A stretch of 64,000 nt of DNA from Bdellovibrionota bacterium (GCA_044351795.1 JBILFA010000004.1:3-64002), one strand, 5' to 3'; shown: positions 240 through 46,186, numbered from the stretch's first letter. Made by a program: numbers and translations. Notes: generated by a model from the sequence alone, not told the origin.

Positions 240-767
240 ATGAGAGAGATGAAATTGTTTTTCGATCAAAACCAGCTTTTCGAAGTCATATTTACAGACC
301 GTGCTAGTGGCTTACATTGCCACTGCGTGAGAGGTAAAGGTGCTGGAGCATACCACTCCGCGGGCTCGTTTCAGTGGACGGCCGCGGTAAAGGGACTAGC
401 TCTACTGCTCGTGCGAGCGGTCAGTGGCCTGGACCCGCACGTCATACACGGATATGCAGGGTCGCTTGCTTCAAGCCTCGATTATGCTATCTCCAAGCAG
501 CCTGTATGGATCTCAGACATGTTCGGCTTTGACGCCGCTGGAACCTGCCTAGTCCGACGATTGGTGCGTCGAACCAACCCTGAGCGCAAGAGGCCAGGGC
601 CAGTGGTGCTCTCGTTGAATGAGCGATTTATGCCCTCTGGCGCGATTACCATCTTTGTGAATGGTATCCCATGCTCACGAGAGGAGTTAGTCGTATTGGC
701 TGCAGCTCTTTCTCGCGAGGACACGGAACTCCCGCGGAAATCTGTCACATTATCAGCAGCCGCGTAG
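240..767 (+). CDS. Hypothetical protein, family-A paralog 1 (unrecognised conserved domain)
   Basis: 175-aa ORF, probable start ATG 249 (MKLFF). Shares the ordered motifs GSFQWTAAVKGLALLLV / SLASSLDYAISKQPVWISDMFG / NPERKRPGPVVL / ITIFVNG with the ORFs at 3543, 6792 and 8701. Confidence 0.75.
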   Translation: MREMKLFFDQNQLFEVIFTDRASGLHCHCVRGKGAGAYHSAGSFQWTAAVKGLALLLVRAVSGLDPHVIHGYAGSLASSLDYAISKQPVWISDMFGFDAAGTCLVRRLVRRTNPERKRPGPVVLSLNERFMPSGAITIFVNGIPCSREELVVLAAALSREDTELPRKSVTLSAAA

Positions 768-3542: not shown

Positions 3543-4775
3543 ATGCACATTAACCTTGCGTTCCTCAGTTGCCCCGGGGGTCCCGAGCTCCTACACATCG
3601 TATTTACTTGCGACACTATCAGGCGCGAGTGCAGCAGAGGTTCGCCAGTAACAAGCAAAGACGGCCGCGGGGCATTCCGCTGGTCTGCGGCAGTCCAGGC
3701 CCTCGCTCTCTTACTAACGCACCACGCCGTTGCCGAGCTCGAGGGTAGGCCACGTGGGACGCTGGAAGGCGATAAGGGCTCTCACGCTGCTTCGCTAGAT
3801 TACGCCATCTCTAAGGAACCTGTCTGGCTCCTGGACATGTTCGGAACTACCGCGAGAGGAGACGCATTTATCAACCGGATTGTGGAGCGCGAAAACTCTG
3901 AGCGCCGTCGCCCCGGTCCAGTGGTCCTGAAAGTCCGATCAGAAGCCCTAGCCCCTACAGATGTAAAAATCCATCTGGACGGAGCTCCACTAGAGGGCAA
4001 ACAGCAGCTACTGGACTTTTGCGGGATCCTACGACGTGCGCTGTCTGTTAGCTCAGAGGGCGACGACCCGGGATACTTGAGTGGAATGCTCGAAAAATTA
4101 GTGATCGACGGAGATGCATTTCTGCGTACACTGAACCTTCAGTCCTATGTGCGGGATCTACGAGCGGATCTTAAGTTACTGGCTGATAGACCGGAGCAAG
4201 GCTGCATAATTGAGTACATAAAGAAGCAGATTAAAGAAGTCTGCATCATGAGTGAAGCGCACTACGCCTCCACCCTCGGTGGGCTGGCAGCTGACGAGCC
4301 CTTTTTATTTTCATGTTCATCGCTCATTGATGCTGGAGTCGAAGCATATGTTTCTGACCCTCATTGGCAATACTTGTTATTCCGCTTCGGTAGCGCCTTT
4401 AAGGTGCGCGGGAAGGTTCCCCCTCTTCGCATCTTTTTTGTAAATAGTGAAACCTTGTGGCAGACAAATCTTCATCATATCGATCACATCATTCGCCAAC
4501 ATCTCGCCTGCGGCATCAATGTAAAATTGGTGCCAGATGAGGCAGTGGTACAAGCAGCGCGTGATAAACGCAACATGGCCATTTTTGGCCATAAGGTGCT
4601 GCTGCATGCGACAGATCAAGTCTCGTGGGACTTAGATTTGACCGTTGAGATGAGTGCGCTGCGGGCTGCCAAGGACAAGCATTTTTATTTTCAAAGTCTT
4701 GACGGTTGTCATATAAAGGCCACGACTCGAGATCCACTTGCTCTGGTAGCGGAGTTTTCGCGCACCATGCTCTGA
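3543..4775 (+). CDS. Family-A paralog 2 fused to an uncharacterised C-terminal domain of about 230 aa
   Basis: The N-terminal part carries GAFRWSAAVQALALLLT / ASLDYAISKEPVWLLDMFG / NSERRRPGPVVL / VKIHLDG. I do not recognise the C-terminal half (PHWQYLLFRFGSAF...IFFVNSE...NMAIFGHKVLLH). Confidence 0.7.
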   Translation: MHINLAFLSCPGGPELLHIVFTCDTIRRECSRGSPVTSKDGRGAFRWSAAVQALALLLTHHAVAELEGRPRGTLEGDKGSHAASLDYAISKEPVWLLDMFGTTARGDAFINRIVERENSERRRPGPVVLKVRSEALAPTDVKIHLDGAPLEGKQQLLDFCGILRRALSVSSEGDDPGYLSGMLEKLVIDGDAFLRTLNLQSYVRDLRADLKLLADRPEQGCIIEYIKKQIKEVCIMSEAHYASTLGGLAADEPFLFSCSSLIDAGVEAYVSDPHWQYLLFRFGSAFKVRGKVPPLRIFFVNSETLWQTNLHHIDHIIRQHLACGINVKLVPDEAVVQAARDKRNMAIFGHKVLLHATDQVSWDLDLTVEMSALRAAKDKHFYFQSLDGCHIKATTRDPLALVAEFSRTML

Positions 4776-5773: not shown

Positions 5774-6574
5774 ATGACTGAAGAAGCATTCGAGTCACAG
5801 TTCGCTGACGTTGAGCTCGAGGACTATAAGGACAACGCCGAGTTCTATGAGCTTGAAGAGCGAGCTCGCCCCGATGAAATGGCCATGATTCACGGTGCCG
5901 GCATGGAAGCGCTGGCTATTGCTCGATCGAGGGGAAAAGCTACCGTTCTTGATCTTTGTTGTGGTACAGGTCTCTCGCATGAGCTTTTGGTGAACGACCC
6001 GTCGATTTCGCGGATCGTAGGCGTTGACATCTCAGAGCCCTACCTGGAGTTCGCCCGGAGTGCATACGCCTCTGCTAAAACTGTCCCGTCTTATATCCTG
6101 GGTGATGTCGTCACTCATCCTCTGCCTGTTGTTGCATGGGACATAGTCATGATGTGCTCCGCTTACCATCACATCGAAGATAGTCGAAAAGTCGACTTCC
6201 TCAAGCGAGTGAGGGGATTGATCCAGCATGGAGGAAGAGGAATCTTTGCCGAGAATATTCTTCCTGCATACAGCCCTGGGGATACACAGCAGTACTCTCA
6301 ATCCGTTCGCCTGTTTTATGAGTCCGTTTTAGAGACAGCTCGCAAAGACAATCCCGCACTTCCAGAGGTTGTAGAACGCCTAATATGGCGTGTGGCCCAG
6401 TATGGGTTCGATGGTGAATATGAGTATAAGGTCAGTTATGACATCTTCCAGGCCCATTTGAATGAGGCTGGCTTAGAGGTCGTAAAGGAGCAAAAAGTTT
6501 GGCCTTCGATCTCCAACAACCTGCTCGGCACGGGTGGAAACTACGTTGTAGTGGTCAAAGCTCGAGACGCCTAG
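5774..6574 (+). CDS. Class I SAM-dependent methyltransferase
   Basis: Motif I VLDLCCGTGLS, with downstream DIVMMCSAYHH. SD aggaga lies upstream of ATG 5774. Confidence 0.75.
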   Translation: MTEEAFESQFADVELEDYKDNAEFYELEERARPDEMAMIHGAGMEALAIARSRGKATVLDLCCGTGLSHELLVNDPSISRIVGVDISEPYLEFARSAYASAKTVPSYILGDVVTHPLPVVAWDIVMMCSAYHHIEDSRKVDFLKRVRGLIQHGGRGIFAENILPAYSPGDTQQYSQSVRLFYESVLETARKDNPALPEVVERLIWRVAQYGFDGEYEYKVSYDIFQAHLNEAGLEVVKEQKVWPSISNNLLGTGGNYVVVVKARDA

Positions 6575-6596
6575 GGTAGGACTTTACACATAAAAT

Positions 6597-6791: not shown

Positions 6792-7355
6792 ATGATCATT
6801 ATGTACATGGCAATTGAGCTCCATTTCGCGTCGGGTAATGAGGTTCAGCTAACCCACACAAAGGTCAGAGATCAGAGGGGCATCTGGTATAGAACAGTCA
6901 GAGGACACACGGAGGGGGCTTATAAAGGTCACGGAACCTTCCAGTGGACTCGCGCTGTGAGAGCTCTTTCGCTCCTGCTCGTTGAATACTGCATGTCGGG
7001 AAGCGTGCGCCTCGAAGGTACGAACGGGTCTCTTGCGAGCTCTCTTGACTATGCCCTCAGCAAAAGACCGATTTGGCTCCTTGACGTATTCGGCGTCGAT
7101 AGCGCCGGAGTTCCCTCCGCACGCCGTCTCTTTAAAGTCACTAACCCCAACCGTAAACGCCCGGGGCCGGTAGCTATTCGAGTTGACGAACACGTTCTTC
7201 CAAGCGGCAACATTAGAATATTCCTGGACAGAGTTCCAATTGAGACAACTAGCGAACTTGAGCCCCTTGCGAGAACTCTCAAGGTAAATGAGAGTGGCGG
7301 CGGCAACGTTAGCCTCCGACCGGTGCCCGCAGCTGCTGTCACATGCGCAGCCTAA
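6792..7355 (+). CDS. Hypothetical protein, family-A paralog 3
   Basis: Probable start ATG 6807 (MAIELHF). Motifs GTFQWTRAVRALSLLLV / SLASSLDYALSKRPIWLLDVFG / NPNRKRPGPVAI / IRIFLDR. The antisense ORFs 6849-7391 and 7049-7342 are treated as shadows. Confidence 0.75.
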   Translation: MIIMYMAIELHFASGNEVQLTHTKVRDQRGIWYRTVRGHTEGAYKGHGTFQWTRAVRALSLLLVEYCMSGSVRLEGTNGSLASSLDYALSKRPIWLLDVFGVDSAGVPSARRLFKVTNPNRKRPGPVAIRVDEHVLPSGNIRIFLDRVPIETTSELEPLARTLKVNESGGGNVSLRPVPAAAVTCAA

Positions 7356-7410
7356 GCCAGCGGCGGTCTCCTCCTCTCTATCAAGCCGCACTAGGAGGAT
7401 TTCGGATACA

Positions 7411-7426
7411 TCGCCTCATTCACAGG
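7411..7426 (+). promoter_or_regulatory. Upstream box copy (tcGCCTCATTCAcagg)
   Basis: One of seven oriented copies of the GCCTCATTCAGG core. It lies about 60-75 nt upstream of the ATG at 7488. Confidence 0.4.
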
Positions 7427-7487
7427 ACCCCATAGATAGTAGGATAGACAGGCATCATCATAGTTCGCTAACAAAGGAGCACTGTGC

Positions 7488-8237
7488 ATGAAGAAGCATG
7501 ATTGGAAGCCTGATACGATCTTGAGCTATGATGCCTCTAGCGACATTTGTAAGTTAGCGCACGGTGAGCCTCGGATGTCGGTGGCCCTCGCCGTTCTGGA
7601 AGACGAAATCCTTACTACAGAACAGATTGTACAATTCAGATGTCTACTACGCCGAAAAGAAGCGCTTCTTCAGGTCGACACAATCACGCACCATCGACGT
7701 GCCGGTACACTCGATAAGATAGCCAGGAGCATCCTCGACTCGCTCGTTATTACGAAAGGGGGATACGTAGCTCTAACAATCCCGGCACAGACAAGCGACC
7801 TTGAGGCTCTCATAGCGTTGAATGCCTATTTTCGAACGCTGCACCCCGCCTTTAAAAGGGACGCTATCTACACTGGAGACCTTGAATGGTATGGAGCACT
7901 GGAGAGCGTTACTCAGCGCGACACAACTATGCCACGGCGTATTTCTATACAGACGCTCGTTCCAAGTACTCAGGGCAAGACGTACAAGCAGCAGGAAAGG
8001 GTACTCGAGCTTCGGCGCTTAGAGCCAGCGGACCCCTTGGAGCAGGCTCTCGTCGCAGCTGCATATGCGTGCGCGAACAAGGGAAAGGATATTTTTCAAG
8101 GGAAGTGGGTCCGTGGTGCTATCGAAGGCATAGTGATAGCGGCACCCGCGAGCGATGGCATCACAGTCGTTAAGTTAGGTGCTGCTGGCGACCCAAACAC
8201 CGCAATTTCTGGAACTCCGATTAAGACGAGGTCCTAA
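7488..8237 (+). CDS. Hypothetical protein, family-B member 1 (partner of family-A paralog 3)
   Basis: 249 aa with SD aaaggag upstream. The N-terminal SSDICKLAHGEPRMSVALAVLEDEILTTEQIVQFRCLL aligns with the N-terminus of ORF 9704. The rest is unrelated to it and unrecognised. Confidence 0.65.
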   Translation: MKKHDWKPDTILSYDASSDICKLAHGEPRMSVALAVLEDEILTTEQIVQFRCLLRRKEALLQVDTITHHRRAGTLDKIARSILDSLVITKGGYVALTIPAQTSDLEALIALNAYFRTLHPAFKRDAIYTGDLEWYGALESVTQRDTTMPRRISIQTLVPSTQGKTYKQQERVLELRRLEPADPLEQALVAAAYACANKGKDIFQGKWVRGAIEGIVIAAPASDGITVVKLGAAGDPNTAISGTPIKTRS

Positions 8238-8310
8238 CAGGAGGTTTCTTCTGATAGGCGAGAACAACTGTTAACTGGATGCCGTACAGGAGAAGTCAAA
8301 GATAGAGTTA

Positions 8311-8496
8311 CTATGCATCCTGAGAAGGACTGAGGCGTTTTGCCATCAGTTGTGCATTGAACTCCGCTCCGTCGTAGCCGTGATGAACCCGTCGATGACA
8401 GTTCGGGCATAGGGCAGTGACCCAGTCTGGATGGTTGCAGTTCCGTGATATCCCGCCACCGCCATCCACGCGTAGAAGCTCCCCTTGAGAGATTCC
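8311..8496 (-). pseudogene. HNH endonuclease C-terminal remnant
   Basis: A minus-strand frame different from track ORF 8234-8722 reads ...NCNHPDWVTALCPNCHRRVHHGYDGAEF...*. LCPNCHrrvH is the HNH zinc-finger end. There is no start codon and the frame opens right after a stop. Confidence 0.3.
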
Positions 8497-8665
8497 TTAC
8501 AAGGTAGGAAGGTTTATGCGCTAATCCCTGCTCTTTCTCTCTCGAGGGCGTACGTGCCCCATTTCTCCCCAGCATTGGGGAGAAGCTCCCCAGTAATGAA
8601 CACCCGCACCCGAATGATTTCAAGTGGTTGTGGTGGCTTCTTGAGTGGCACGTCGCTTGCGGAAG

Positions 8666-8708
8666 GTCCTCACATAAAACCACCGCACTAAGGTTAACAT
8701 GTGAGGAC
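8666..8708 (+). promoter_or_regulatory. 10-bp perfect inverted repeat that would occlude the SD of family-A paralog 4
   Basis: gtcctcacat (8666-8675) pairs with atgtgaggac (8699-8708). The right arm contains GAGGA 8-9 nt upstream of ATG 8716. Confidence 0.3.
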
Positions 8709-9312
8709 ACCATATATGGCAAAGACTAACACCCGACTTGAACTTTACTTCGGCAACACCTCTTCTCCTGGCCTCTACCGTACGGTGTTCGTACCGCCCT
8801 ACCAAACCCAACCAATTGTAGGCCTCCGAGGGACAACGCTTCACACTACGGCTCTTCCGTTTATCTGGGGCCCGGCTTCGCAAGCTCTTTCGCTTCTGTT
8901 CGTATCAGCAGTCGTGCGCAAGCTGTCAGGTGAGCCGATTGCGCTACCGCTCCTTGAAGGACCCAGCTTGAGTCCCGCAGGCGCGCTTGCCCGCCTATTA
9001 AAGAAGAGAACTACCTCGTGGCTACATGACCTCTTCGGTTCCGACGCTATGGGACGTTCTCTCCTTCACCGAATTATTATGTTGGGAAATGCTAGAGGTA
9101 AGCAGCAAGGACCTATCATCGCCACGCTCAACGAAGCCTACCTGTCTTCTCACGACATATCGATCCTCGTAGAGGGGCAGGACATTTCCAACGACTTTAA
9201 GGCTCTGGTGAAGCTACGTGATTCATTGCGCAGCTCTTTTATTCCGCGGAAAGACCCTCTCGCCAACAGTGTTCTCTCTCGCAACCGGAGCATTGAGCTC
9301 AAAGCAGCCTAG
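8701..9312 (+). CDS. Hypothetical protein, family-A paralog 4 (most diverged)
   Basis: Probable start ATG 8716 (MAKTN). It keeps the family skeleton: LELYF, PFIWGPASQALSLLFV, WLHDLFGSDAMG, GKQQGPIIATLNE, ISILVEG. Confidence 0.65.
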   Translation: MRTPYMAKTNTRLELYFGNTSSPGLYRTVFVPPYQTQPIVGLRGTTLHTTALPFIWGPASQALSLLFVSAVVRKLSGEPIALPLLEGPSLSPAGALARLLKKRTTSWLHDLFGSDAMGRSLLHRIIMLGNARGKQQGPIIATLNEAYLSSHDISILVEGQDISNDFKALVKLRDSLRSSFIPRKDPLANSVLSRNRSIELKAA

Positions 9313-9377
9313 CACAAGCTCTTAGATTGTACTTGAAAGGCGACAGTAAGATAAGAGCACGAGTGAGAGCCGGACAG

Positions 9378-9482
9378 ATGCCGGAGATCGACACCCAGGA
9401 ACTCGACGCGCTCACTAGGGAGCACGAGAAGAGGGAACAGCAACACAATCTTGGGCTATCGCGGTCACGATTTAAGCGGTGA
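9378..9482 (+). CDS. Small conserved charged peptide (paralog of 46187-46372)
   Basis: MPEIDTQELDALTREHEKREQQHNLGLSRSRFKR. The DNA at 9365-9483 is an inverted copy of 46187-46305, and several of the differences are synonymous. The frame is open upstream, with a possible TTG start at 9333. Confidence 0.4.
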   Translation: MPEIDTQELDALTREHEKREQQHNLGLSRSRFKR

Positions 9483-9581
9483 GTAATCGGAACAAAACCG
9501 ACAGGTTGCGACAGCAAGGTTGCTTAGCGCACGCGTTTTCTTACAATACCCATATCGCTGTTGTAATTCGAAGGAGAGCGC

Positions 9582-9701
9582 ATGAGCGATTCACTGTACG
9601 AACAATTTAGAGAGCTTTTAACAGGCGAGGTCCTTTCTCCCGAGGAAAAAGAAGTTCTCAGTCGTAAGATCCTTGCAATCATATTTGGAGAGGAGCAGTA
9701 G
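9582..9701 (+). CDS. 39-aa ORF translationally coupled to family-B member 2
   Basis: ATG 9582 with SD aaggag at 9571-9576. MSDSLYEQFRELLTGEVLSPEEKEVLSRKILAIIFGEEQ. The stop ends 2 nt before ATG 9704. Confidence 0.4.
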   Translation: MSDSLYEQFRELLTGEVLSPEEKEVLSRKILAIIFGEEQ

Positions 9702-9703
9702 TT

Positions 9704-10294
9704 ATGGAATCGGTTCAGATAACACCAAAAGCTAGTTTGGATATAGCAAAGCTTGCGCTGGGAGCTGATAGAGCTCAGGTTGCGCTTGATGCTCTTCAGG
9801 AATCCAACCTTAGCCCGGCTCAGGTCAAACAGCTTGAAGCTCTACTGAAAATGGTATCGCCAACTGAAGGCGCCGCTTCCGCCACTACATCCCCAGCTGT
9901 CGCCGAGCTAAAGTCAGTCGATGGCCACCAAGCTGTGGTAGGCAAAATAACAGTCAATGGCCAGCAATTAGATACCCTCCTGTCGGAAGGGGCTTTTAAC
10001 AAATCACGAGCGGATCAACACGAGTATGCCGCAAAATTAGATTGCCGGATGGCTACCCGCGCAGAGAGTCGAGCGTATGTAGATAGTTTGCTTACAAAAG
10101 AGGAAGATAAATCAATTAACGCAGCTGAAGCCAATGCCCTTAAAACCTACAGGAATTGGTTCGTACGGGATGATGAAGGCGGGCTTGTTGTTGATGGTCG
10201 GCGTGTTCGCGACGGCCGCGGCAACTACTGGCGCGAAGACGCCTATCCTGGCCTCGGTGCGTTGTTTGTGCGCGCTTCTGCGGAATCAAAATAA
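9704..10294 (+). CDS. Hypothetical protein, family-B member 2 (partner of family-A paralog 4)
   Basis: The N-terminal SLDIAKLALGADRAQVALDALQESNLSPAQVKQLEALL aligns with ORF 7488. The C-terminus (CRMATRAESRAYVDSLL...GNYWREDAYPGLGALFVRAS) only faintly recalls DUF1566/FGE-type folds. Confidence 0.65.
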   Translation: MESVQITPKASLDIAKLALGADRAQVALDALQESNLSPAQVKQLEALLKMVSPTEGAASATTSPAVAELKSVDGHQAVVGKITVNGQQLDTLLSEGAFNKSRADQHEYAAKLDCRMATRAESRAYVDSLLTKEEDKSINAAEANALKTYRNWFVRDDEGGLVVDGRRVRDGRGNYWREDAYPGLGALFVRASAESK

Positions 10295-10322
10295 TTTGAT
10301 CGTTGATCATTGGTTTCTTGGT

Positions 10323-10340
10323 CCCCTCCGGTAGGAGGGG
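10323..10340. terminator. Hairpin between convergent genes
   Basis: cccctcc-ggta-ggagggg forms a 7-bp GC-rich stem between the stop at 10294 (+) and the stop at 10399 (-). There is no clear U tract. Confidence 0.3.
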
Positions 10341-10398
10341 TTGGGTCCATTGATCCTTGGTACTTTGATCGAAAAATTTTCTACTTTAGCCGTGGTCG

Positions 10399-11122: not shown

Positions 11123-12094
11123 CTATAGTCGCTCGAGATCTCTCCCGATACGGCTTAGGATTTCAGCTAGTGATGGGCGTCCCTTAAAATAGAGGCTCGC
11201 GCTTCGATCGTACTCCTTCTCAAACAGGGCTCGATCCAGTGAGTCGGTCAGCTTGAAGGCGTCACTATTTGCTATCTTGATGTCGTCGCCACCGAATCGC
11301 TCTTTCTTAAAATGCTCATACTCATCGGTACCGATGAAGCCTTGAACATCCGGCCGCTCAATCAGGTGGAAAAGATCGTAGTAGTGTCTAATGAAATTAG
11401 CTGGCAAGCTTCGTCCTGGATCCCCATCCTTGTAAAGGCGAAACTTTCGAACTACTGCCTGGAGCTTCTCCACAAAAGTGAACTTAGGCTCGTAGCAAAG
11501 AACTCCCAGAGCTCGGTTATCGATGATATCAATGCCAGGTGCGCTGGCAGCTCGCTCGTATGCCCATGAGGTAATGAGTCGCGGTTGGTTGGGTGCAGTT
11601 CGATCAAATCCCAATTCGAGCAGGATGCCATTTTTTAGGCCATGAATGGTAAAAAGAGAGCGATAAAAGAGCCTGACACCGCCACTCCTGAGCTTCGCGG
11701 TATCATCAAACGCTTGATCACGCTCGCTACCTATAATACCGGGAATCGCGTCCCTTAGATAATCGGCGATCCAATCGAAGTACCGTTTTCGCGACTCCCG
11801 ATGCTTCCGTTCATCGTGGTTTCTACTCGAATAAACTTTGAATCCGCATAGCTTCTCATCAGGCTCGATTTTAATGTCGATGTCCTCTGAAAAGCGGTGG
11901 ATGCAATCGTATCCCTTCGACAGAGAAGTGCCTCCTTTAAGTTGGAACTGCAGTCCCTGCTGCTGAAGCCCCCACAGCACATGCATCAACCAGTAATCTT
12001 TCTCTACAAGAAAGGGGTCCTTGATACCCATCGCGGTTGAGGTGATCTCAATGAGGTCTTTGAAGTCGTCTCGGTTGTGGAGGAAGTCGCTCAT
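11123..12094 (-). CDS. abiEii: Nucleotidyltransferase toxin, AbiEii/AbiGii family
   Basis: LKGGTSLSKGYDCIHRFSEDIDIKI is the family NTase motif. The start overlaps the upstream antitoxin stop by 1 nt (TAATG). Confidence 0.8.
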   Translation of the reverse strand: MSDFLHNRDDFKDLIEITSTAMGIKDPFLVEKDYWLMHVLWGLQQQGLQFQLKGGTSLSKGYDCIHRFSEDIDIKIEPDEKLCGFKVYSSRNHDERKHRESRKRYFDWIADYLRDAIPGIIGSERDQAFDDTAKLRSGGVRLFYRSLFTIHGLKNGILLELGFDRTAPNQPRLITSWAYERAASAPGIDIIDNRALGVLCYEPKFTFVEKLQAVVRKFRLYKDGDPGRSLPANFIRHYYDLFHLIERPDVQGFIGTDEYEHFKKERFGGDDIKIANSDAFKLTDSLDRALFEKEYDRSASLYFKGRPSLAEILSRIGRDLERL

Positions 12095-12705
12095 TAAACA
12101 CTATGCTCATGACTATCAGCGATTTCGAGTAGCCGCTTGAGTTTTTTTTGAGTACTGAGTGTGCCGTACTTAGAGGCCGCCAGTAAAAGCCGCCTACGAT
12201 TGAACTCTGGAAGCTTGTCCTTTAGACGATCAAGCACTTGTTCTCGATCTTCTGAGAGCTCCTCTAGGCGATTGAGCAGCTCAACAACAAGAAACTCTGG
12301 CGTGACCCTCTTGGGAGCTTCGCGCCAACGATGAAATGAATACGTGCGCTCTCCAAAAGTGAACTCTCCAACTCGCTTGCGGTTGAAAACTATCAGGCGA
12401 TCATAAAGCTGCGTGGTGCCCAGGCCTAACGAGTTGAACTGGCTTGGCCCATAGACTACAAAGTGATCGTCCTTAAGAAAGCTTTTCAGAAGCGACTCAA
12501 CATCTGGCGGAGCCTCCCCAAAATCAGTGATCTTTGGCGCCGCGTAGAGCCCCTGTGAGAGCTTTTTCAGAGTCCCCTCTGCAACGAGCTTAGCTAGGTG
12601 GCGGTCAACATTTGCGGAGTAGGGGGCAAGATCTGCGCGGCGGTACACCTGCCCAGGAACTAGCAGGTTCTTTAGTTTGCTGAGTGTTTCAGTCTGGCGC
12701 ATCAA
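12094..12705 (-). CDS. abiEi: AbiEi-like antitoxin / transcriptional regulator
   Basis: 203 aa. The wHTH-like HLAKLVAEGTLKKLSQGLYAAP fits the AbiEi pattern (L..Lv..G.l.r...GlY). It is coupled to the abiEii-family gene. Confidence 0.65.
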   Translation of the reverse strand: MMRQTETLSKLKNLLVPGQVYRRADLAPYSANVDRHLAKLVAEGTLKKLSQGLYAAPKITDFGEAPPDVESLLKSFLKDDHFVVYGPSQFNSLGLGTTQLYDRLIVFNRKRVGEFTFGERTYSFHRWREAPKRVTPEFLVVELLNRLEELSEDREQVLDRLKDKLPEFNRRRLLLAASKYGTLSTQKKLKRLLEIADSHEHSV

Positions 12706-19661: not shown

Positions 19662-21678
19662 CGCCCTCGGCCATACGCTTCTCCCAAGGGTCCATCGCGG
19701 TTAGGGAAGGCAGCCTACCCTTCTCCTCCTTGAAGCGCTTTGCTCGCTTCGCGAGCTCACGAGCCTCCTCTATAGACATGCTGATTCGCTTTGCTGCAAT
19801 AACTTCGGCGACCATCCTAAGGCGCTCTTCACTCATGGACTTAGCGAGTATCGCGTATGCCTCACCAAACGGATTGACGCTATCAATAAGGTCGATATCA
19901 AGTTCTCTCACATGCAGAGCATATCGTCGAACACCATCGATGAGAGCCGTATTCCCGGTCTCGACTGAGCTCCCTTGATTCAAATCCGTCAGCGCCTTCT
20001 TGCCCTGCTGGACAAGATTTAGTGCAGCGACCGCGTGCTGGCGGATCGCTTCTTGATCCTCCTCTCCACATTCAGGGTATCGCTCCTTGATAATCTTACC
20101 CATTCTGACTTGTGTTAGCTCCTGCGGGACCACCTCACTGTCGAACAAGCCTCGCTCAATAGTCTGCTTGTCTTGGACAAATGCTGTAATCAATTCAGTC
20201 AGGTCTTCTCGACAGATCCGTTGGGCCTCCCTACTCTTCGGTGCCGCTAACCCCTTTATCTCAAGCTCAAGTTGACCGGTGTTTGGGTTCACACCGACAT
20301 TACACCTAGCTTGGTCGTACCCCCCGTCCCCGTAATCCATCCCAGGGGTCGGTCCGTTATTGGGATTCTTCGGGCGGAACTCGAACCTCGGAGCTAGAAC
20401 CTGCTCCATTAGAAGACTTGCGGCGATTGCCTTCAGAGTATCGTTCACCGCTTCATTGACCGCCGATTCGGCCGCGTCAGGCTCAGCAATTAGATTGGTG
20501 AATCGAGCTCTCGTCTTTCCAGGCGCATCTCGAGTGGCTCGTCCAATGATCTGGACTATTTCTGTGAGGCTCGCTCTGTATCCAATCGTCAGCGCATGCT
20601 CACACCAAATCCAATCAAAGCCCTCCTTAGCCATACCCAGGGCGATGATGATATCCACATGGTCTCGGTTGTTCTTTTGATTCGGATCTTTGAGAGAGGC
20701 GGAAACCCTATCGCGTTTAGCTTGTTCATCATCAACCAGATCCGCGATTCGAAGTACCTTTCCGCTCGCAACCTTGACGAGTTGAAATCCTGTCGTTGGG
20801 TCCGTTCCCTGCCACTGTCCTAGCTGTTCGAGAATGTGCTCGACTTCGCGGATCTTGTCCTTCGTGCTCTCTCGCGAGTTCACGTTGGGAATATGGACTA
20901 TAGTTTTCTCATCGTGGTCAAGAACCTTGAGAATCTCGTCCGTGTAGCTGCCAGCATAGAAGTAATATCCAATATCGAGCTGCTTTAAGTACTGATAGCC
21001 ATTAAGCTGCTCGTAGTAGGTGTAAGTGACCGTCTCAAACTTTGCCTCGTCTTCTGGGTGCAAGACCGCTTCGGCGTCACCACGGAAGTATGATCCCGTC
21101 ATAGCCACCAGGTGCGTTTTACCTCGAGCTATCAGCTGACGGACGTGATCCCCTAACCTGCTGTCAGGGTTTGCTGATACGTGATGGAACTCATCTACCG
21201 CTATAAGGCGATCGTCGAATACCTCGACACCGTATTTTTCAACCGCGAACCGGAAAGTTGCGTGCGTACAGACCAGCGCCTTATCTTCGGTCGCAAGAAA
21301 CGCCTTTAGACCATCCACTTTACCACCGTTGTCGCCACCCGGCGCATCGCATAAGTTCCACTTCGGTTCTACCTTCCAGTCAGCCCAAAATCCGTACTGG
21401 GTAAGCGGCTCGTCGTGAAAACTGGATCCTATGGATTTCTCGGGCACTACGATAATAGCCTGTTTGAGCCCTTGATTCTGGAGCTTATCGAGGGCGATAA
21501 ACATTAAGGCCCGACTTTTTCCTGACGCAGGTGGGGACTTTATCAAAAGGTACTGCTCGCCGCGTTTCTGATAAACGCGCTCTTGCATCGGCCGCATGCC
21601 GAGAGCGTTTGAGCGAGTGGAACTTCCGTCCTGAGCATAACTTACCGAAACTGACGGAACCGATATCCCGTTACTCAT
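19618..21678 (-). CDS. DEAD/DEAH-box (SF2) helicase
   Basis: Walker A SPPASGKSRAL, DEFHH box and motif VI QIIGRATRD. There is a C-terminal GRLPSL helicase-associated-like tail. The start overlaps the methyltransferase stop (ATGA). Confidence 0.85.
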   Translation of the reverse strand: MSNGISVPSVSVSYAQDGSSTRSNALGMRPMQERVYQKRGEQYLLIKSPPASGKSRALMFIALDKLQNQGLKQAIIVVPEKSIGSSFHDEPLTQYGFWADWKVEPKWNLCDAPGGDNGGKVDGLKAFLATEDKALVCTHATFRFAVEKYGVEVFDDRLIAVDEFHHVSANPDSRLGDHVRQLIARGKTHLVAMTGSYFRGDAEAVLHPEDEAKFETVTYTYYEQLNGYQYLKQLDIGYYFYAGSYTDEILKVLDHDEKTIVHIPNVNSRESTKDKIREVEHILEQLGQWQGTDPTTGFQLVKVASGKVLRIADLVDDEQAKRDRVSASLKDPNQKNNRDHVDIIIALGMAKEGFDWIWCEHALTIGYRASLTEIVQIIGRATRDAPGKTRARFTNLIAEPDAAESAVNEAVNDTLKAIAASLLMEQVLAPRFEFRPKNPNNGPTPGMDYGDGGYDQARCNVGVNPNTGQLELEIKGLAAPKSREAQRICREDLTELITAFVQDKQTIERGLFDSEVVPQELTQVRMGKIIKERYPECGEEDQEAIRQHAVAALNLVQQGKKALTDLNQGSSVETGNTALIDGVRRYALHVRELDIDLIDSVNPFGEAYAILAKSMSEERLRMVAEVIAAKRISMSIEEARELAKRAKRFKEEKGRLPSLTAMDPWEKRMAEGVAFLQKKVKESTNA

Positions 21679-24497
21679 ACCGGAGTCTCCTTGGCTTTAC
21701 GCTTGGTGCCTGGCTTTGCGGTCCTATGCGAACTGGTCATTTTTGTGTAGAGCTCGAACAGTTTTTCTAATCGCTCGGTGTCGTTCTTAAAACGGCGCCC
21801 TATGTAAATACGTTCCAGTATCTCATCATTCCGTTCATGCGCTTCACGGAGATCCGCAGGCATAGCTTCAGGATCGTAGAGATCGGCGATTGTCGCCGGG
21901 AAATGTACCTCGCGGGTTAGTAGAATACTCTCGGCGCATCGGGTGAGATCAGCTTTGTTTTTCTCAGTCAGGGGAGGAAGCGGGAACGTATTCCATCCAA
22001 GCGTATTGGAATACGAGAAATCAGTCCTCATTCTAACGCAGACTGTCCCGATCCACACCCAATGGAGACGCGAGGCGATAACAGCTAAGTTCCAAAGAGG
22101 TGCGTCATATAATACGAAGTTTCGCTCGCTAATGACGCTATGCCCGTCTGTTATCCCAACCGGAAGATACGCTCGGTTCTCGGATGATACCCTCGGGACC
22201 ACTATTGCTTGTCCGTTTCTATGAGGGGCGAACACGAATCTGTGCGGGGTGTCAGCGTTATCACGTGCCTGTTTTCCCCCTTTCAGCCGCGCCTCTCTGA
22301 CTTTGTCGATCCGTGCTTTTATCGGGGGGCACATCAATGCAAGTTCGAGCTCGCTGTCTTCAATCCAGAGGCAATATTTGAACGTGGAGTGAATAAACTC
22401 CCTAGAGCCAATAAAGTACTTTATGAACTGTCTGCTGCCTGGATGCGTCGAACGGAGTGCTTCTGCTTCGGCAACATCCAGTACCAGGTGCCCGCCGTCA
22501 TTAGCCATGTTACCGCGAAGCATCTTCGCTCGCTCATCCGATGCGCATGAAGCCGGGCCAACCGTGATATTTGGCCCAGGCACGAGGTAGGGTCCGATGT
22601 TCCCTACAACTCTAGACATGTCTGCTCCACTGTCGTCGACATCAACTAATTCTCGTTTAGAAGACCCCTGGACGGAGAGCCCAACGATTACCACGGTGAC
22701 ACCAGCCTTGTAGGATGCCAAGTTGGCCCACTTGAACGACCGGTAAGCAAACTGAATGTGGTGGCCCGTGGCAAAAATCAGAGGCCAAAGAATAGCGACC
22801 TGCTCACCTTGGCAAATGGAGTTCGTTGCCACGAAGGCCGAGGCGCATCGAGCTTTAAGACCATACAGAGCGGCCTTGAACAACCATCCGGCAACGTAAT
22901 CCAGCGACTTCCAGTCTTTGGTGTACTTTTCAAAAATGCTTTTAAGATCGGCCTTTTGAGTCGGTGATTGCATAACCGACCCCAAATACGGTGGATTACC
23001 GCAAATGTACGTCTCTCCTCCTTCGTTAGCGAAATTAATCTCGGCTTGTTCCAGAGGGGTGGAGAATAGATCGTCCGCGTGACGTTTGACCGCAGTCCCT
23101 TCTGGTGGACACAGGCTCAGCCACTCGAGATGAAGGGCATTGCCACAGGATATCCAATTAGCTGCCTCAAGAGGGAGGAATTCGGCTAGCGCTCTCTCTT
23201 GCCCTCGATAAAGAACGTCACATTGGTATTCGGCAATAATGAGCGCGAGTCTCGCTATCTCAGCCGAAAAGTGTCGTAACTCGATCCCGCGAAAATTCGT
23301 CAATGGAATATCAGAGCGGCGAGATCGGTCGTTTCTCTTGCGATTGATCTCGGCCTCGATTGCCCGCATCTCTTTGTATGCAATAACTAGGAAGTTCCCA
23401 GATCCACAGGCCGGGTCGAAAACCCGAATGTGTGCTATCCGGTTGCGGAGGTTGAGAAGCTTTCGAGGGTTGTCACCTGCCTCTTCTAGCTGCCGCCGCA
23501 GGTCATCTAGAAAAAGTGGATTAAGAACCTTCAAAATATTCGGCACACTAGTGTAGTGCATACCAAGTTCGCCGCGCTCTTCATCGTCGGCCACGGCCTG
23601 AATCATCGACCCGAAGATATCCGGATTAATCTTCGTCCAGTCTAGGTTCCCGACATGTAAAAGGTATGACCGCGCGATCTTACTGAAACGAGGAACCTCT
23701 AAACTATCGGAGAAGAGCCCTCCATTGACGTAGGGAAAGTTTCTAGCCCAAGCTCGTATGTTTGCTTCCTCGCGTTCCGCAAGCGGCGTGTTCATCGAGC
23801 GAAAGAGCTCGGCCAGCACCTCGTGAGTGTTCGAAGCGTCCGGGGAGCTCATCTGTTCAATGGTCCCTGTGAACCGCGCCTGTATACCGAAGATGTTCGT
23901 ATCCTCTGCGAAAAAGCAAAAAATGAGCCTCGCAAAAAAGTGATTCAACTCCTCGCGACGCGAGGCGTTATCCCAATCGGGATTTACTTTCAGCAATTCG
24001 ACATAGAGCCGATTGAGTCGTCCAGTAGCCTTTATGTCAAAGGCGTTCTCACGGATCTCTCTTACGGTTGTAATTCCGGCCAACGGCAGGAAGAAGCCAA
24101 AGTGATCCGAGAAGTCACTATAGGCGCAAGCCACCGTTTCACCATCAACGACGTTCTCGGCCTCAAAACTCTTCCCATCCGTCGCAAGAATGAATTTGGC
24201 CTTCTGACGTATTGTCGTGGAACTTTCTCGCAACGCGGTAAGGGTTGCTGTAACCTCTCCCTCGGAGCATGTCGCTATGTGGATGTTATTGCGCTGGAGG
24301 ACTCCACCCGCGATATCGGATTGATTGGTCTCTCCACTCTTCAGTCGCTTTATGGTCGTCTCTTTATTTCCGAATGCTTCGAGAAATGCATAGGGAAACG
24401 ACTCGGCGTCGAAGGGCAATGCTGCCAATGCAGAAACCGCCTCTTCTATTTCGACTGCATTCATTAAGACTCCCCTACTGTGCTGCCGGCAAGGCAT
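21675..24497 (-). CDS. MmeI-family (type IIL/IIG-like) N6-adenine DNA methyltransferase with an atypical N-terminus
   Basis: RLIFCFFAEDTNIF, GMHYTSVPNILKVLNPLFLDDL, FDPACGSGNFL (motif I) and CGNPPYLG (motif IV). The probable start is ATG 24464 (MNAVEIEE). I cannot find the MmeI D-x9-E-x-K nuclease motif in the first 150 aa. Confidence 0.8.
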   Translation of the reverse strand: MPCRQHSRGVLMNAVEIEEAVSALAALPFDAESFPYAFLEAFGNKETTIKRLKSGETNQSDIAGGVLQRNNIHIATCSEGEVTATLTALRESSTTIRQKAKFILATDGKSFEAENVVDGETVACAYSDFSDHFGFFLPLAGITTVREIRENAFDIKATGRLNRLYVELLKVNPDWDNASRREELNHFFARLIFCFFAEDTNIFGIQARFTGTIEQMSSPDASNTHEVLAELFRSMNTPLAEREEANIRAWARNFPYVNGGLFSDSLEVPRFSKIARSYLLHVGNLDWTKINPDIFGSMIQAVADDEERGELGMHYTSVPNILKVLNPLFLDDLRRQLEEAGDNPRKLLNLRNRIAHIRVFDPACGSGNFLVIAYKEMRAIEAEINRKRNDRSRRSDIPLTNFRGIELRHFSAEIARLALIIAEYQCDVLYRGQERALAEFLPLEAANWISCGNALHLEWLSLCPPEGTAVKRHADDLFSTPLEQAEINFANEGGETYICGNPPYLGSVMQSPTQKADLKSIFEKYTKDWKSLDYVAGWLFKAALYGLKARCASAFVATNSICQGEQVAILWPLIFATGHHIQFAYRSFKWANLASYKAGVTVVIVGLSVQGSSKRELVDVDDSGADMSRVVGNIGPYLVPGPNITVGPASCASDERAKMLRGNMANDGGHLVLDVAEAEALRSTHPGSRQFIKYFIGSREFIHSTFKYCLWIEDSELELALMCPPIKARIDKVREARLKGGKQARDNADTPHRFVFAPHRNGQAIVVPRVSSENRAYLPVGITDGHSVISERNFVLYDAPLWNLAVIASRLHWVWIGTVCVRMRTDFSYSNTLGWNTFPLPPLTEKNKADLTRCAESILLTREVHFPATIADLYDPEAMPADLREAHERNDEILERIYIGRRFKNDTERLEKLFELYTKMTSSHRTAKPGTKRKAKETPV

Positions 24498-29531: not shown

Positions 29532-29800
29532 GGAAGCAGACGCTTTAATTTAGCAGACCGCTATTTTAAACCCGCTCAGACTTATACCTGAGTTCTTGAG
29601 TTTGTATAGCGTTAATTGGCCGGGTGTGCTCGCCTCTCCGCGCTGCCTTCCTCACGTGGCAAACCTAGACGATCATGTACGTCGAACTTTACTTTCTATG
29701 AGACCTCATAGAACGATTTTAATTTACATTCAGGAGGATCTACGTTACGAGTGGGCCGCCTGACTTTCTCTATTCCTCTTAAGTACACGTGAGGGGGTTT

Positions 29801-30817
29801 ATGTTTTCATCTCAACACAGCTCGTCCTTTCCCTTTTTGCCGAGACAAAGGGAGTCTGGGGCCTCGGAAAGCACCCAGGGGCCGATGATTGCTCTCTCTG
29901 ATCGTTCACGGGATATTTTCTCTTCTATCCTTGCAGAAGTCGCGGGCGGTCCCTACTCTAACCAAGAGCTACCGCGTTACCTAACAGCTGCAACGAGACT
30001 TTGGGCGGAGAATCTTCCCGAGCTAGATAGAGCCCGTTCTCTATTGGTAGACCACGCCGTCCCTGCAGTTCTGTTAACGAACCTTCCCCAGGATGAGACG
30101 GTCCCACCGACCGGACCAGACGGCCGCATGATGAAGAAGACATCTGTTAGTGAAGCGGTGAGCGTCGCCTTGCTGCATCCCTTAGGGCGGCTGGCCACGC
30201 ATGCAGACAAACGAGACGGTGCTGTTGTTAGTGACCTGTATCCAAAAAAGTCTGATGCGGCAGCCCAGCTTGGCTCAAATTCAGTGTTTTTGGAGTGGCA
30301 TACAGACGAAGCTTTTCATGACGTCCCACCATCTTTTGTTTGCCTCTACGGTGTACGAGGAGAACCCTTAGCACAAACCCTTATCGCTGAGTTCAATTGC
30401 TCTGAGCTGCCACCGGAGATCGCGAGAGTCCTTTCCGAACCTCACTTCAGCATTCGATCGGACGGTTCCCATGCTGTGTTAGGGCAAAGAAAGAAAGCTG
30501 CTGTTCTTGACGGCGAAGGAGCCGATGCGCTGGTTAGATATGACCCGGTATTCACGGATTTCGACAACGCTGAGGCTGAGCTCGCCTTCGCTCAGTTTGA
30601 AGCATTTACGTTGAGAAAGTCGCTTAGCTTTACCATAGATACGGGGCAGGCACTTATCTTCAATAATAAAATCGGGATACATGCGAGAACAGAGTTTCCT
30701 CCCCGATTTGATGGCACTGATAGGTGGATCATCAAGTCGCAAGTAGTACCCGTAAGCACCCCCGAAGAGAAGTTTCACAATTCCAATCGATTTTGGCTAA
30801 ACCCAATTGGAGCTTGA
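29801..30817 (+). CDS. Fe(II)/2-oxoglutarate dioxygenase, clavaminate-synthase-like (VioC/AsnO/TauD superfamily)
   Basis: LEWHTDEAFHDVPPSFVCLYGVRGEPLAQT carries the HxD facial-triad start, followed by the FH..P....L.C.R....T pattern of CAS-like amino-acid hydroxylases. The distal IGIHARTEF follows. The start is ATG 29801 (the track GTG at 29789 is also possible). Confidence 0.7.
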   Translation: MFSSQHSSSFPFLPRQRESGASESTQGPMIALSDRSRDIFSSILAEVAGGPYSNQELPRYLTAATRLWAENLPELDRARSLLVDHAVPAVLLTNLPQDETVPPTGPDGRMMKKTSVSEAVSVALLHPLGRLATHADKRDGAVVSDLYPKKSDAAAQLGSNSVFLEWHTDEAFHDVPPSFVCLYGVRGEPLAQTLIAEFNCSELPPEIARVLSEPHFSIRSDGSHAVLGQRKKAAVLDGEGADALVRYDPVFTDFDNAEAELAFAQFEAFTLRKSLSFTIDTGQALIFNNKIGIHARTEFPPRFDGTDRWIIKSQVVPVSTPEEKFHNSNRFWLNPIGA

Positions 30818-30821
30818 GCTC

Positions 30822-31712
30822 ATGAACCAAGAAATACAAAAGCATACCGAACTCGGATTATCCGACCTACTAATAAAACCCTTCCTGTATGAATCTAGCG
30901 CTCAGTACAGCGTAGTCCTCCCCGAGTACCATTTCGCCGAAGGGACGGACATGGAGATGGCCGCGAGCAAGCTGAATAAGTTGGCGAGTCGACGAGAAAA
31001 GCCAGTCACGTTAGTGGACTGCGGGGCAGGCCCCGGTCGAGTGTGGGAATATCTAGGGGCGGATTTTGCCACAGTTGTCGCTGTCGAGCCGAGTCGAGGC
31101 ATGTGGAGAGCTGACCCGCCCTCTAACGTTAAATACGTGGAGTCAGGTGCTTTTGAATTTCTGAAAGCCAATCCAAGTACCGAAAGAATCGTTTCATTTC
31201 TTTGGTCAGTGAACTACCCACTACTGAGCTTTTTCGAGAAGTACGATCCAAAACAAGGAAAGGTCATTCAATTCGACGCACACAAGGGAGATGCTGATTG
31301 TAGAGCGGCAGTGCGCGAGGTGCTAGAGCGCAACTCTGGCTCCGACTATTTTATCATGGTGTTCGATGATGAGTCGCCCGAACAGCAATTTGTTACCTCT
31401 GTTTGGGAACGGGAAGCTCCATTTCCTTTCAATGACCGTTCCTATACTCGGCGACTCTTATTAGATGAAATGCAACGCTTCGCAGAGAAAAGTGGTGCCC
31501 TTTTCACGCAGGAGCATCACGCGGGTTTTGCGGACTATGGGCCCGGAGGTGTTGCCTTGAGTCGCATGCTCAATTTCCATCTGAGGGGACACTTCAACAA
31601 TGACCCAGAAGTTGTACAAGCCGCAGCGACTTTTCTTAGCTCCTACCGTGATGACAGCACTACTAAGGTGCCTGTGGGGATGCACATACTTCAGCTGCAG
31701 GCTGTTCCATGA
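30822..31712 (+). CDS. Class I SAM-dependent methyltransferase
   Basis: Motif I LVDCGAGPGRVWEYL. The ATG at 30822 lies 4 nt after the upstream stop. The track start at 30807 is a non-ATG codon inside the upstream gene. Confidence 0.65.
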   Translation: MNQEIQKHTELGLSDLLIKPFLYESSAQYSVVLPEYHFAEGTDMEMAASKLNKLASRREKPVTLVDCGAGPGRVWEYLGADFATVVAVEPSRGMWRADPPSNVKYVESGAFEFLKANPSTERIVSFLWSVNYPLLSFFEKYDPKQGKVIQFDAHKGDADCRAAVREVLERNSGSDYFIMVFDDESPEQQFVTSVWEREAPFPFNDRSYTRRLLLDEMQRFAEKSGALFTQEHHAGFADYGPGGVALSRMLNFHLRGHFNNDPEVVQAAATFLSSYRDDSTTKVPVGMHILQLQAVP

Positions 31713-32536
31713 GCACTCCTTGCGTTCTCATTACCGGGGCCTCGGGTACGTTCGGGCTAGCGCTTACAGATTTCTTTCTGAATACCGGTTGGTCTGTGAT
31801 TGCTGGGGTGCGTCGTGCTGCCGCGGAATCATATGTCAGAGAGCGCTTTGGAGCGGCGGTTTCGAACCAACGGCTCTCCATACTGTCCTTAAATGCGCTT
31901 GATTTATCACAGTGCCACGAAGTCCTGAAGGTGTATCTGCAATCGAATCCAGCCCCAAATGCGCTCATCAACAACGCTGCGACGGATTCATGGGAGGCAA
32001 TTGAGGACTTAACCCCGGAAGTTCTCATTGAAGTGCTACAGGTCAACTTGGTATTTCCCGCAATTCTAACGCGAGTTCTTATTAAACACTGGCGAGATGC
32101 CAAGCAGAGCGGCTCTATCCTTCACATTTCGTCTCTGCTTGCTAACTTTGGGGCTCTCGATAGCAGTGCCTATGCTGCTAGCAAGGGGGGTCTAGAGGCG
32201 TTCTCGAGAGCCGTTGCGGTTGAAGCAGGGCCTTATGGTATCCGCTCGAATGTTCTTCGTATTGCTGCGTGTCAACATGGTCTGACATCGCGTCACGAGC
32301 TACCGAGCCTAGATATTCGCTTCACAAGCGCTAACAACAACTCTACTAATATCGAGCTCATCCCCTTACAGCGACGAGGTGATATCGCCGACTTCTGTCG
32401 TGCTGCATCTTTTCTCGTTGGTCCAGAGGCGTCCTTTATTACAGGACAGGAGTTGACTGCTGATGGTGGACTCTCGGTTGTCTATCCTGGGTATTCTTCA
32501 CCGAGCTGCGGCCAGTTAGGAGCCGAAAATGTTTGA
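31709..32536 (+). CDS. Short-chain dehydrogenase/reductase (SDR)
   Basis: ITGASGTFG (TGxxxGxG), LINNAAT and YAASKGGLEAF (YxxxK). ATGA overlap with the upstream gene. Confidence 0.85.
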   Translation: MSTPCVLITGASGTFGLALTDFFLNTGWSVIAGVRRAAAESYVRERFGAAVSNQRLSILSLNALDLSQCHEVLKVYLQSNPAPNALINNAATDSWEAIEDLTPEVLIEVLQVNLVFPAILTRVLIKHWRDAKQSGSILHISSLLANFGALDSSAYAASKGGLEAFSRAVAVEAGPYGIRSNVLRIAACQHGLTSRHELPSLDIRFTSANNNSTNIELIPLQRRGDIADFCRAASFLVGPEASFITGQELTADGGLSVVYPGYSSPSCGQLGAENV

Positions 32537-35578: not shown

Positions 35579-35581
35579 CCC

Positions 35582-36103
35582 ATGAGACGTTATTGTATTT
35601 TTCTTATCGCCGAATCGCCTGCCCTTGCGCTGATAGAGGATATCAGAATACTGCTCGATCCATTGAGCGGTGTTGTTCCTGCTCACCTTACGGTGGTGTT
35701 TCCTTTTTCTACAGAGATGTCTCCTAAGGTTATTATCGACCATGTGGCTGATCGCGCTGCTCACTTCTCTCCCATCGAGACGACCTTGGTAGGTTGTCAC
35801 CTTCAAAACGATGGATACATTCACATTTCAGTCCTGGATCAGCAGAAGCAACTATCCGCGCTACATGCGCAGCTGTATTCGGGTAGCCTCGAGTCGTTCT
35901 TGGATCCGAATTTTCCATTCCTGCCTCACATAACTATTGGGCGCTACACGGCTACGTCTCAAGACGGCGCAGAAAAACAGATACAGAGACTTTCCTTCCC
36001 AATTTGTTTGCGTTTAAGCAGGTTAGTCTTAGAGGAGATCCTTGAGGACGATAAATCGAGCCCTCTGCTGGAAGTGACGTTAGGAGGTAAGGTATCAACA
36101 TGA
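35582..36103 (+). CDS. 2H phosphoesterase (LigT / 2'-5' RNA ligase-like)
   Basis: Two H-x-T/S motifs at the expected spacing, AHLTVVFPF and LPHITIGR. 173 aa. Confidence 0.7.
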   Translation: MRRYCIFLIAESPALALIEDIRILLDPLSGVVPAHLTVVFPFSTEMSPKVIIDHVADRAAHFSPIETTLVGCHLQNDGYIHISVLDQQKQLSALHAQLYSGSLESFLDPNFPFLPHITIGRYTATSQDGAEKQIQRLSFPICLRLSRLVLEEILEDDKSSPLLEVTLGGKVST

Positions 36104-46015: not shown

Positions 46016-46186
46016 GTCCTTGAACCTCCTATACACAAACGCAGTCTACGCACGTAGCTCAGTAATTCCATAATCGGTTACATTAGACGAACCGCATGGT
46101 CTCTGGTAGTGCGAAGAACTGTTTAATACCAGCAGCATCACCTAAAGGAGGGCTACGCCACGGGCTCGGCGTTTTTGTTACGTGGG

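Follow-up and report, generated by a model that had tools for sequence, protein, structure and literature searches.

Positions 6792 to 10294 of the DNA considered here carry two genes of a family termed A (A1, 6792-7355; A2, 8701-9312), each with a larger gene downstream on the same, plus strand, termed B1 (7488-8237) and B2 (9704-10294). They lie in a window of 64 kb, by which is meant the whole 64,000-nucleotide stretch analyzed, from a Bdellovibrionota bacterium (GCA_044351795.1 JBILFA010000004.1:3-64002). The interval is very probably a mosaic of two unrelated components: target genes of diversity-generating retroelements (DGRs), namely B1 and B2, with a swapped unit made up of a small open reading frame (ORF) and the N-terminal domain that the two B proteins share (the handle); and a separate gene family, A. 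The kind of protein to which B1 and B2 belong, the DGR variable protein, is already known, though these two members are new and unannotated; what appeared to be a pair of toxin-like cassettes is re-filed as DGR biology. Two unannotated variable-protein families are added from an uncultured predatory phylum; a full-text search of one library of papers returned none naming both DGRs and Bdellovibrionota.

How would such a gene be diversified? The DGR definitions used here are those of PMC5758913. In a complete cassette of the B family, the order runs from a small helical ORF to the target, a spacer with the template repeat (TR), the accessory variability determinant (Avd) on the opposite strand, and a reverse transcriptase (RT). 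The TR RNA is reverse transcribed with random misincorporation opposite adenines, and the cDNA replaces the variable region (VR) located 3' in the target gene. The codons randomized in this way, about 14 in number and reading AAC or GAC in the TR, would lie within a C-terminal binding surface.

B2 and B1 as targets of DGRs

B2 has more than 146 homologues, which align over their full length at 52 to 82% identity. Conservation is high along the family alignment and breaks down only in a block of 14 to 16 residues, immediately before an invariant C-terminal GALFVRASAESK. Distinct VR strings are found in 98 of the 102 homologues with a recognizable VR block, and 93% of the residues in these blocks belong to the set that NNC or NNT codons can encode, with a fixed Trp in addition. 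The VR of the window's own B2 spans 10177-10285. Within its mutable block (10208-10255), C or T is the last base of 15 of 16 codons, namely 14 variable ones and CCT; the others are an invariant TGG and one GAA. Third codon positions stay C or T while the first two positions vary. The constant flanks of the VR are 97 to 100% identical across loci whose gene bodies are 72 to 89% identical, and the segment 10256-10294 is 100% identical across loci.

Loci of B2 homologues carry the machinery. Upstream, a 39- or 53-aa ORF directly adjoins the beginning of the target gene or runs into it; past the target come bAvd (PF22296), encoded on the other strand, and a reverse transcriptase of the RVT_1 family or what is left of one. 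At one such locus, L095, a TR (9200-9305) is found just before Avd. The L095 VR differs from this TR at 17 of 26 TR adenines and at none of the 79 other bases (p 2e-13), which is the signature that defines a DGR (PMC5758913). Compared with the same TR, the window's B2 VR differs at 17 of 26 adenines and at 4 of 79 other bases (Fisher p 7.5e-10). The C-terminal variability of B is therefore ascribed to the adenine mutagenesis of a DGR. Could the B2 block instead have arisen by ordinary diversifying selection or allele recombination, with Avd and RT standing beside homologues by coincidence? In favor of this idea, most B2 loci examined carry no cognate TR and several RTs are damaged. Against it stand the constancy of the third codon positions, the excess of identity in the flanks over the gene bodies, and the recurrence of Avd and RT beside both B types, while the L095 TR, with every difference at an adenine, contradicts it directly. 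We consider it extremely improbable.

The window's B2 belongs to a larger conserved module (9495-10392, plus strand) that comprises a leader, the small ORF, B2 with its VR, a constant 3' end, and a hairpin. The module shares 83 to 85% nucleotide identity with L095 (7794-8653) and with a second locus, L091 (2572-3461). The small ORF, here called s39, encodes a 39-aa helical partner (9582-9701) and ends 2 nucleotides before the B2 ATG. B2 itself consists of the handle (aa 1 to 49, 9704-9850), a linker rich in S, T, A, and P, a conserved core, and the C-terminal VR, whose constant end, resembling an initiation of mutagenic homing (IMH) site, starts at 10256. Downstream of the VR is a GC-rich inverted repeat, CCCCTCC-GGTA-GGAGGGG (10323-10340), predicted as a centroid hairpin. 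Its stem is invariant and its loop variable in all seven aligned B2 loci, and the 3' flank of B2 is conserved in the same 7/7. GC-rich inverted repeats have been described downstream of the IMH of DGR targets (PMC5758913), and the B2 hairpin corresponds to these. DNA homology stops at about 10392; beyond this point the other loci go on with spacer, TR, and Avd. The target module of B2 is, in short, intact but cut off from its diversifier at ~10392. It retains what a recipient of mutagenesis needs: an intact ORF, a freshly adenine-mutagenized VR, the IMH-like end, and the hairpin. A TR able to write the window's VR would read GGTCGGCGTGTT, about seven A-rich codons, TGG, about five A-rich codons, CCT, two AAY codons, and GGTGCGTTGTTTGTGCGCGCTTCTGCGGAA; it would lack the TCAAAATAATTTGATCG that follows, as well as the hairpin, and would lie beside Avd and RT.

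The known DGR targets, such as Mtd of Bordetella phage BPP-1, TvpA of Treponema, and LdtA of Legionella (PMC5758913), resemble the B family in having a VR at the 3' end of the gene and, at its homologues, an adenine-specific TR, Avd, and RT. B2 shares with them, in addition, the IMH-like end followed by a GC inverted repeat and the conversion of an AAC-rich TR into NNC codons in the VR. Unlike them, the B family has a three-helix handle and a co-varying small ORF at the start of the target, its Avd is on the strand opposite the target and RT, and it has no Pfam family. Searches of PHROGs matched B2 to one phrog of unknown function, and a scan of viral contigs found neither relatives of B2 nor the constant motif of its VR and TR. 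The AlphaFold2 (AF2) model of B2 has a pLDDT of 67 overall, 82 to 89 in the core, and below 50 in the VR, and shows the handle as three helices.

What of B1? For this gene, with a handle at ~7506-7652 and an equivalent of the former VR at ~8121-8222, no more than eight relatives could be detected; the gene call in the database begins at its Met30. Two of the relatives, P0123 and P0125, are encoded on plasmid-like contigs with Mob and ParA, within complete DGR cassettes. In the B1-type cassettes (L092, L093, and L094), a 50- or 51-aa ORF is followed by the target, the TR, Avd on the minus strand, and a 345-aa RT. The TRs are AAC-rich. At L093, the TR (7021-7131) and the VR (6474-6584) differ at TR adenines with the exception of one position, and at L092 the differences likewise fall at TR adenines, in an alignment that has a 3-nt gap. 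P0125 and P0126 are near-identical and differ mainly in the C-terminal VR stretch.

In the window's B1 these features are gone. The codons equivalent to the VR are not NNC and the adenine pattern is absent; no conserved 3' flank or GC inverted repeat, no TR, and no homologous upstream small ORF accompany the gene in the window. Its VR stretch is identical to that of P0122, an 82% identical protein. B1 is an older orphan, a decayed paralogue that has lost its VR, its 3' recognition flank, and its small partner ORF. A few loci exhibit three stages in the life of a DGR target: the complete cassette, the orphan that keeps its recognition signals, and the decayed copy.

The handle and its small partner ORF

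B1 and B2 align with each other only at their N termini (45% identity over 40 aa, BLASTP E 2e-6), as had been read from the sequence alone. Profile-profile comparison of the two families by hhalign placed this similarity above chance (91% probability, E 1e-6, over 61 N-terminal columns) and found nothing beyond it. The further claim that the two proteins are unrelated past this point holds at the sequence level, but it needs amending in one respect, as homologues in both C-terminal families have a DGR variable region at their end. The shared domain is ~50 aa long and is predicted, at low confidence, to form three helices (AF2).

A search with the handle profile of 1.84 billion representative proteins recovered 37 clusters with at least eight types of C-terminal region, bearing out the proposal of a shared handle with exchanged C-terminal modules. 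The handle is N-terminal in all 37 apart from a few repetitive, long proteins, many of the proteins end in a stretch rich in D, N, Y, and G followed by a conserved tail, and none of the handle-bearing proteins of these clusters has a Pfam match. Within the B2 family the handle comes in two homologous subtypes. Both are found on B1-type as well as B2-type C termini; P0275, for example, joins a type 2 handle to a B1-type C terminus. Other arrangements occur, among them P0266 (340 aa), with one handle and two tandem B2-type domains that each have a VR-like tail, and P0130/P0149, in which the DIAKLAQG unit of the handle is internally duplicated.

The conserved partner of B is not A but the small ORF upstream. 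The small ORFs of 39, 50, 51, and 53 aa are mutually homologous and lie upstream of every B1-type and B2-type homologue examined. The type of small ORF tracks the type of handle in 11 of 11 loci examined, and between loci that are otherwise 92% identical the small ORF and handle (9534-9862 in the window) have been replaced as one block. Co-variation and tight gene spacing lead us to infer that the handle and the small protein interact. Together they may serve as the fixed part, for docking or assembly, to which different hypervariable domains are joined. The small ORF and three-helix handle are swapped as a unit, and their complex would attach the variable domain to some cellular structure. 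Shuffled handles with a co-varying small partner would represent a constant mount for different hypervariable domains.

A more specific version of this idea can be imagined, though we think it unlikely. The handle and small ORF would be a docking or export module by which a DGR-randomized domain is mounted on a surface or transfer structure of the conjugative element or of the predatory cell, and the plasmid-borne B2 would be a plug-in target that any compatible DGR of the current host could rewrite in trans. If so, B2 would correspond, by way of a retroelement, to the PilV adhesin of IncI plasmids, which a shufflon diversifies, and would tune the recognition of recipients or prey.

Is A nevertheless part of the cassette? 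The sequence-only reading had taken each A gene and the B gene after it as one unit, and this did not survive comparison with other loci. Among 79 A-family loci from genome representatives, none has a handle-bearing ORF, and at 10 B-homologue loci outside this element lineage there is no A gene; the pairing of A with B is thus not conserved. Adjacency of A and B was found on only one closely related contig besides the window, although the same metagenome-assembled genomes (MAGs) carry both families, for example JAIXQT (L005 and L033). The usual successor of an A gene is a convergent one. The related contig, 12 kb long and encoding a type IV secretion system (T4SS), has the order TrbC-VirB3-VirB4-…-TrbI, an A gene (173 aa), and a B1 homologue (82% identity), after which come a minus-strand ORF, an A2-like gene, a small ORF, and a B2-like gene. 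This preserved order indicates that the local arrangement belongs to a single element lineage.

These results bear on the suggestion that the pairs are polymorphic effector or toxin cassettes, in which the handle would serve trafficking, the C termini would be toxins, and A or the small ORFs would act as partner, chaperone, or immunity protein. Several features speak for it: the conserved N terminus with variable C termini is real, and the A-B order is kept on the related T4SS contig. Polymorphic toxins (contact-dependent inhibition proteins, Rhs, and LXG with Lap) likewise mount exchangeable C-terminal modules on a conserved N-terminal one. In the LXG/Lap type VII toxins, the gene for a small helical protein directly precedes the one whose N-terminal domain is helical, and the small ORF and handle resemble this arrangement by analogy alone. 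Type VII secretion, however, is not expected in this Gram-negative phylum. A and the handle-bearing B genes are unlinked in the 79 and 10 other loci just described, and most A genes are monocistronic with a convergent neighbor. What lies downstream of B homologues is Avd and RT, not immunity genes, and the C-terminal hypervariability obeys the adenine rule of DGRs; mutagenesis of a few codons by the retroelement, along with module swapping, produces the variability. Aside from the B2 phrog and a nearby HNH fragment, searches of Pfam, NCBIfam, PADLOC, and PHROGs gave no toxin, immunity, or known family for A, B, or the small ORFs, and sequence-profile searches of the PDB that started from the alignments of A, B1, and B2 yielded no meaningful match. 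We judge a toxin cassette very unlikely. The description of the C termini as effector or specificity modules stands in its second half, in a loose sense, and is unsupported in its first.

State of the cassettes in the window

The window does not contain a complete DGR cassette. BLAST and an adenine-tolerant sliding scan found no cognate TR for the VR of B1 or B2 in the 64 kb, and an AAC-density scan of the same DNA found no AAC-rich tract. The RT and Avd of L093, L095, L089, and L088 have no tblastn match in the window, and neither RVT_1 nor bAvd was detected among its scanned ORFs.

How, then, did B2 acquire its VR? That the NNC pattern is almost undisturbed and the recognition elements are intact argues for a recent last round of mutagenesis. 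Two accounts fit, at roughly even odds: B2 is a remote target on which a DGR located elsewhere in the host acts in trans, or it is a very recent orphan. Remote targets are known from Treponema and Legionella (PMC5758913), and B2 resembles them in having a VR and recognition elements with no adjacent TR or RT. It differs in residing on a conjugative element alongside the decayed B1, and may equally well be a recent orphan. If servicing in trans does occur, mobile elements could carry targets that exploit the DGR of their host.

Several observations tell against the DGR interpretation or narrow what it can claim. (i) No TR, RT, or Avd was found in the window for its own B2, so that any present-day diversification of B2 is hypothetical. 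(ii) The RTs beside B2 homologues are often damaged or accompanied by non-cognate parts (L089, L088, and L091), and much of the family may accordingly be decaying rather than active. (iii) The TR used in the adenine comparison with the window's B2 is that of L095, which comes from another metagenome and differs by one codon in length from the TR that last wrote the window's VR. (iv) The C-type lectin fold expected of DGR variable domains is unconfirmed: Foldseek with the B2 model against the PDB gave nothing at E ≤ 0.001, only several weak matches to C-type lectin domains of surfactant protein D at E 0.6 to 2. (v) Signal peptide, lipobox, and membrane anchor are all absent from the B proteins, while most cellular DGR targets carry a signal peptide or membrane anchor (PMC8144416). 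(vi) The docking role of the handle and small ORF is a proposal from co-variation and gene order.

The damage itself takes several forms. The RT at L089 (9528-10013) has an internal deletion of the catalytic core, and at L088 (5667-6164) and L091 (4522-5527) the remaining damage consists of N-terminal truncation and frameshift. The L091 spacer is 95% identical to that of L095, and the position of the TR (4040-4140) holds the template of a different VR class, one that resembles the C termini of P0273 and P0280 and not the adjacent B2 gene. This mismatch points to the swapping of TRs and targets between cassettes.

Family A and the element that carries the interval

Family A is a separate, lineage-specific, and heavily expanded family that neighbors B in this element lineage only. 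A1 and A2 are both stand-alone members, A2 being divergent and from a subfamily of ~200 aa; the two share 35% identity over 105 aa (BLASTP E 4e-11). Further copies in the window are A0 (240-767, plus strand; tblastn E 8e-36 to A1) and the N-terminal domain of a 410-aa fusion (3543-4775, plus strand) with an unannotated C-terminal domain. The family profile gathers at least 187 unannotated proteins, and scanning genomes brought up 121 relatives, almost all of them in Bdellovibrionota MAGs from fresh water. Some A-bearing MAGs are labelled Pseudomonadota, Deltaproteobacteria, or Melainabacteria, and those kept have 4 to 8 loci each. Most of 105 A ORFs are stand-alone, 170 to 230 aa long, and followed by the convergent gene mentioned above, while ~20 are N-terminal fusions to C-terminal regions that are unrelated to one another and mostly unannotated.

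Two of the fusions, ~1270 aa long, are of particular interest. Encoded on the minus strand at L033 (1349-5194) and L009 (2133-5948), with a stand-alone A gene divergently adjacent, they join A to an nSTAND1 NTPase (PF20703, E 8e-95), repeats, and a C-terminal FGE-sulfatase domain. This order recalls the STAND NTPase conflict systems with DGR-diversified FGE-sulfatase sensors (PMC10907252; nSTAND, PF20703). At these two loci A, with its stand-alone relative next door, would occupy the position of effector or effector-associated domains. Unlike the published systems, the A-nSTAND1 loci have no TR or RT nearby; in the window, A occurs by itself or joined to other domains that lack annotation, with no STAND NTPase alongside.

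The AF2 model of A is confident (pLDDT 90), and Foldseek searches with it of the PDB and BFVD returned no match at E ≤ 0.001. Sub-threshold matches to DEDD and family-B polymerase exonucleases recur, but with TM scores of at most 0.25 an RNase H-like topology is not claimed. The proteins share a conserved basic motif, RKRPGP. One may speculate that A is an adaptor, an effector-associated protein, or a nucleic-acid-binding protein. With hundreds of members, a confident model lacking structural relatives, and a fusion to a STAND NTPase, it is a lead in its own right.

Might A still be a functional partner of whatever follows it within this plasmid lineage, as a nucleic-acid-binding regulator or adaptor heading each cassette? 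The first 9.3 kb of the window contain four same-strand A paralogues, each before a different cargo; the pairs proposed are A0 with a lyase, the A fusion with methyltransferases, A1 with B1, and A2 with the small ORFs and B2. The order of A and B1 on the related contig and the use of A as an N-terminal module, including beside the nSTAND1 and FGE-sulfatase domains with a stand-alone A next door, point the same way, as does the RKRPGP motif. On the other hand, A shows no general linkage to any downstream family, its usual neighbor is convergent, and its fold has no significant match. The homology of the DGR target module, moreover, begins only at 9495, after both A2 and a charged-peptide ORF. 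Such a partnership thus appears improbable.

The charged-peptide ORF just mentioned (51 aa, 9327-9482, plus strand) includes a repeat unit of ~120 bp (~9363-9485). A second copy of the repeat is found at ~46187-46310 on the minus strand (85 to 90% identity by blastn; 81% over 43 aa by tblastn), and at both sites it encodes the same charged peptide in frame, …GQMPEIDTQELDA.TRE.E.K.EQQHNLGLSRSRF.R. Downstream of the second copy is the gene for a 190-aa protein (45464-46036, minus strand) whose hydrophobic N-terminal stretch may be a secretion signal. Between B1 and A2, on the minus strand, is the C-terminal fragment of an HNH endonuclease (8311-8469), situated within a junk-like 162-aa ORF (8234-8722). 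Its matches are weak but consistent: a PHROG HNH endonuclease (E 5.5e-4), phrog_15103 (E 1.8e-7), and mREase_IV of PADLOC (E 0.0015). The surrounding ORF was considered as an Avd remnant and ruled out, having neither similarity to Avd nor a Pfam match. This fragment, the charged-peptide copy, the 39-aa ORF, and the two A and two B genes are all at or near where the sequence-only reading had placed them.

What kind of element is this? The window is a conjugative plasmid or an integrative and conjugative element, and 6792-10294 lies within its accessory region; the host is probably an uncultured freshwater Bdellovibrionota bacterium. It encodes an RPA-type replication initiator, ParA, integrases, a MobA/VirD2-type relaxase, a VirD4-type coupling protein, VirB11, an M23 peptidase, ArdC, and RadC. 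The last two are anti-restriction-type genes (46931-48671). A tblastn search of the PLSDB plasmids with A1 and B2 found no match.

The window also encodes an MmeI-type restriction-modification enzyme and two AbiE pairs. The former (21675-24497) adjoins a helicase-like gene of the same element. The two AbiEii toxin genes are in the regions 11123-12705 and 53227-54413; one follows an AbiEi-like gene (12094-12705), and the second is preceded by an unannotated 133-aa ORF.

Another part of the window is a same-strand cluster (29789-38001) that encodes a TauD-like dioxygenase, a methyltransferase, an SDR enzyme, an AMP-binding enzyme, and an asparagine synthase, along with a LigT-like 2',5'-ligase and an arginyl-tRNA-synthetase-like protein. 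It resembles a small-molecule or peptide-modification pathway carried by a mobile element. Finally, the first A paralogue is followed by a pyridoxal phosphate-dependent enzyme of the threonine-aldolase/GntG-like kind (1512-2927), which bears a helical C-terminal extension of ~100 aa with a sub-threshold match to SHOCT.

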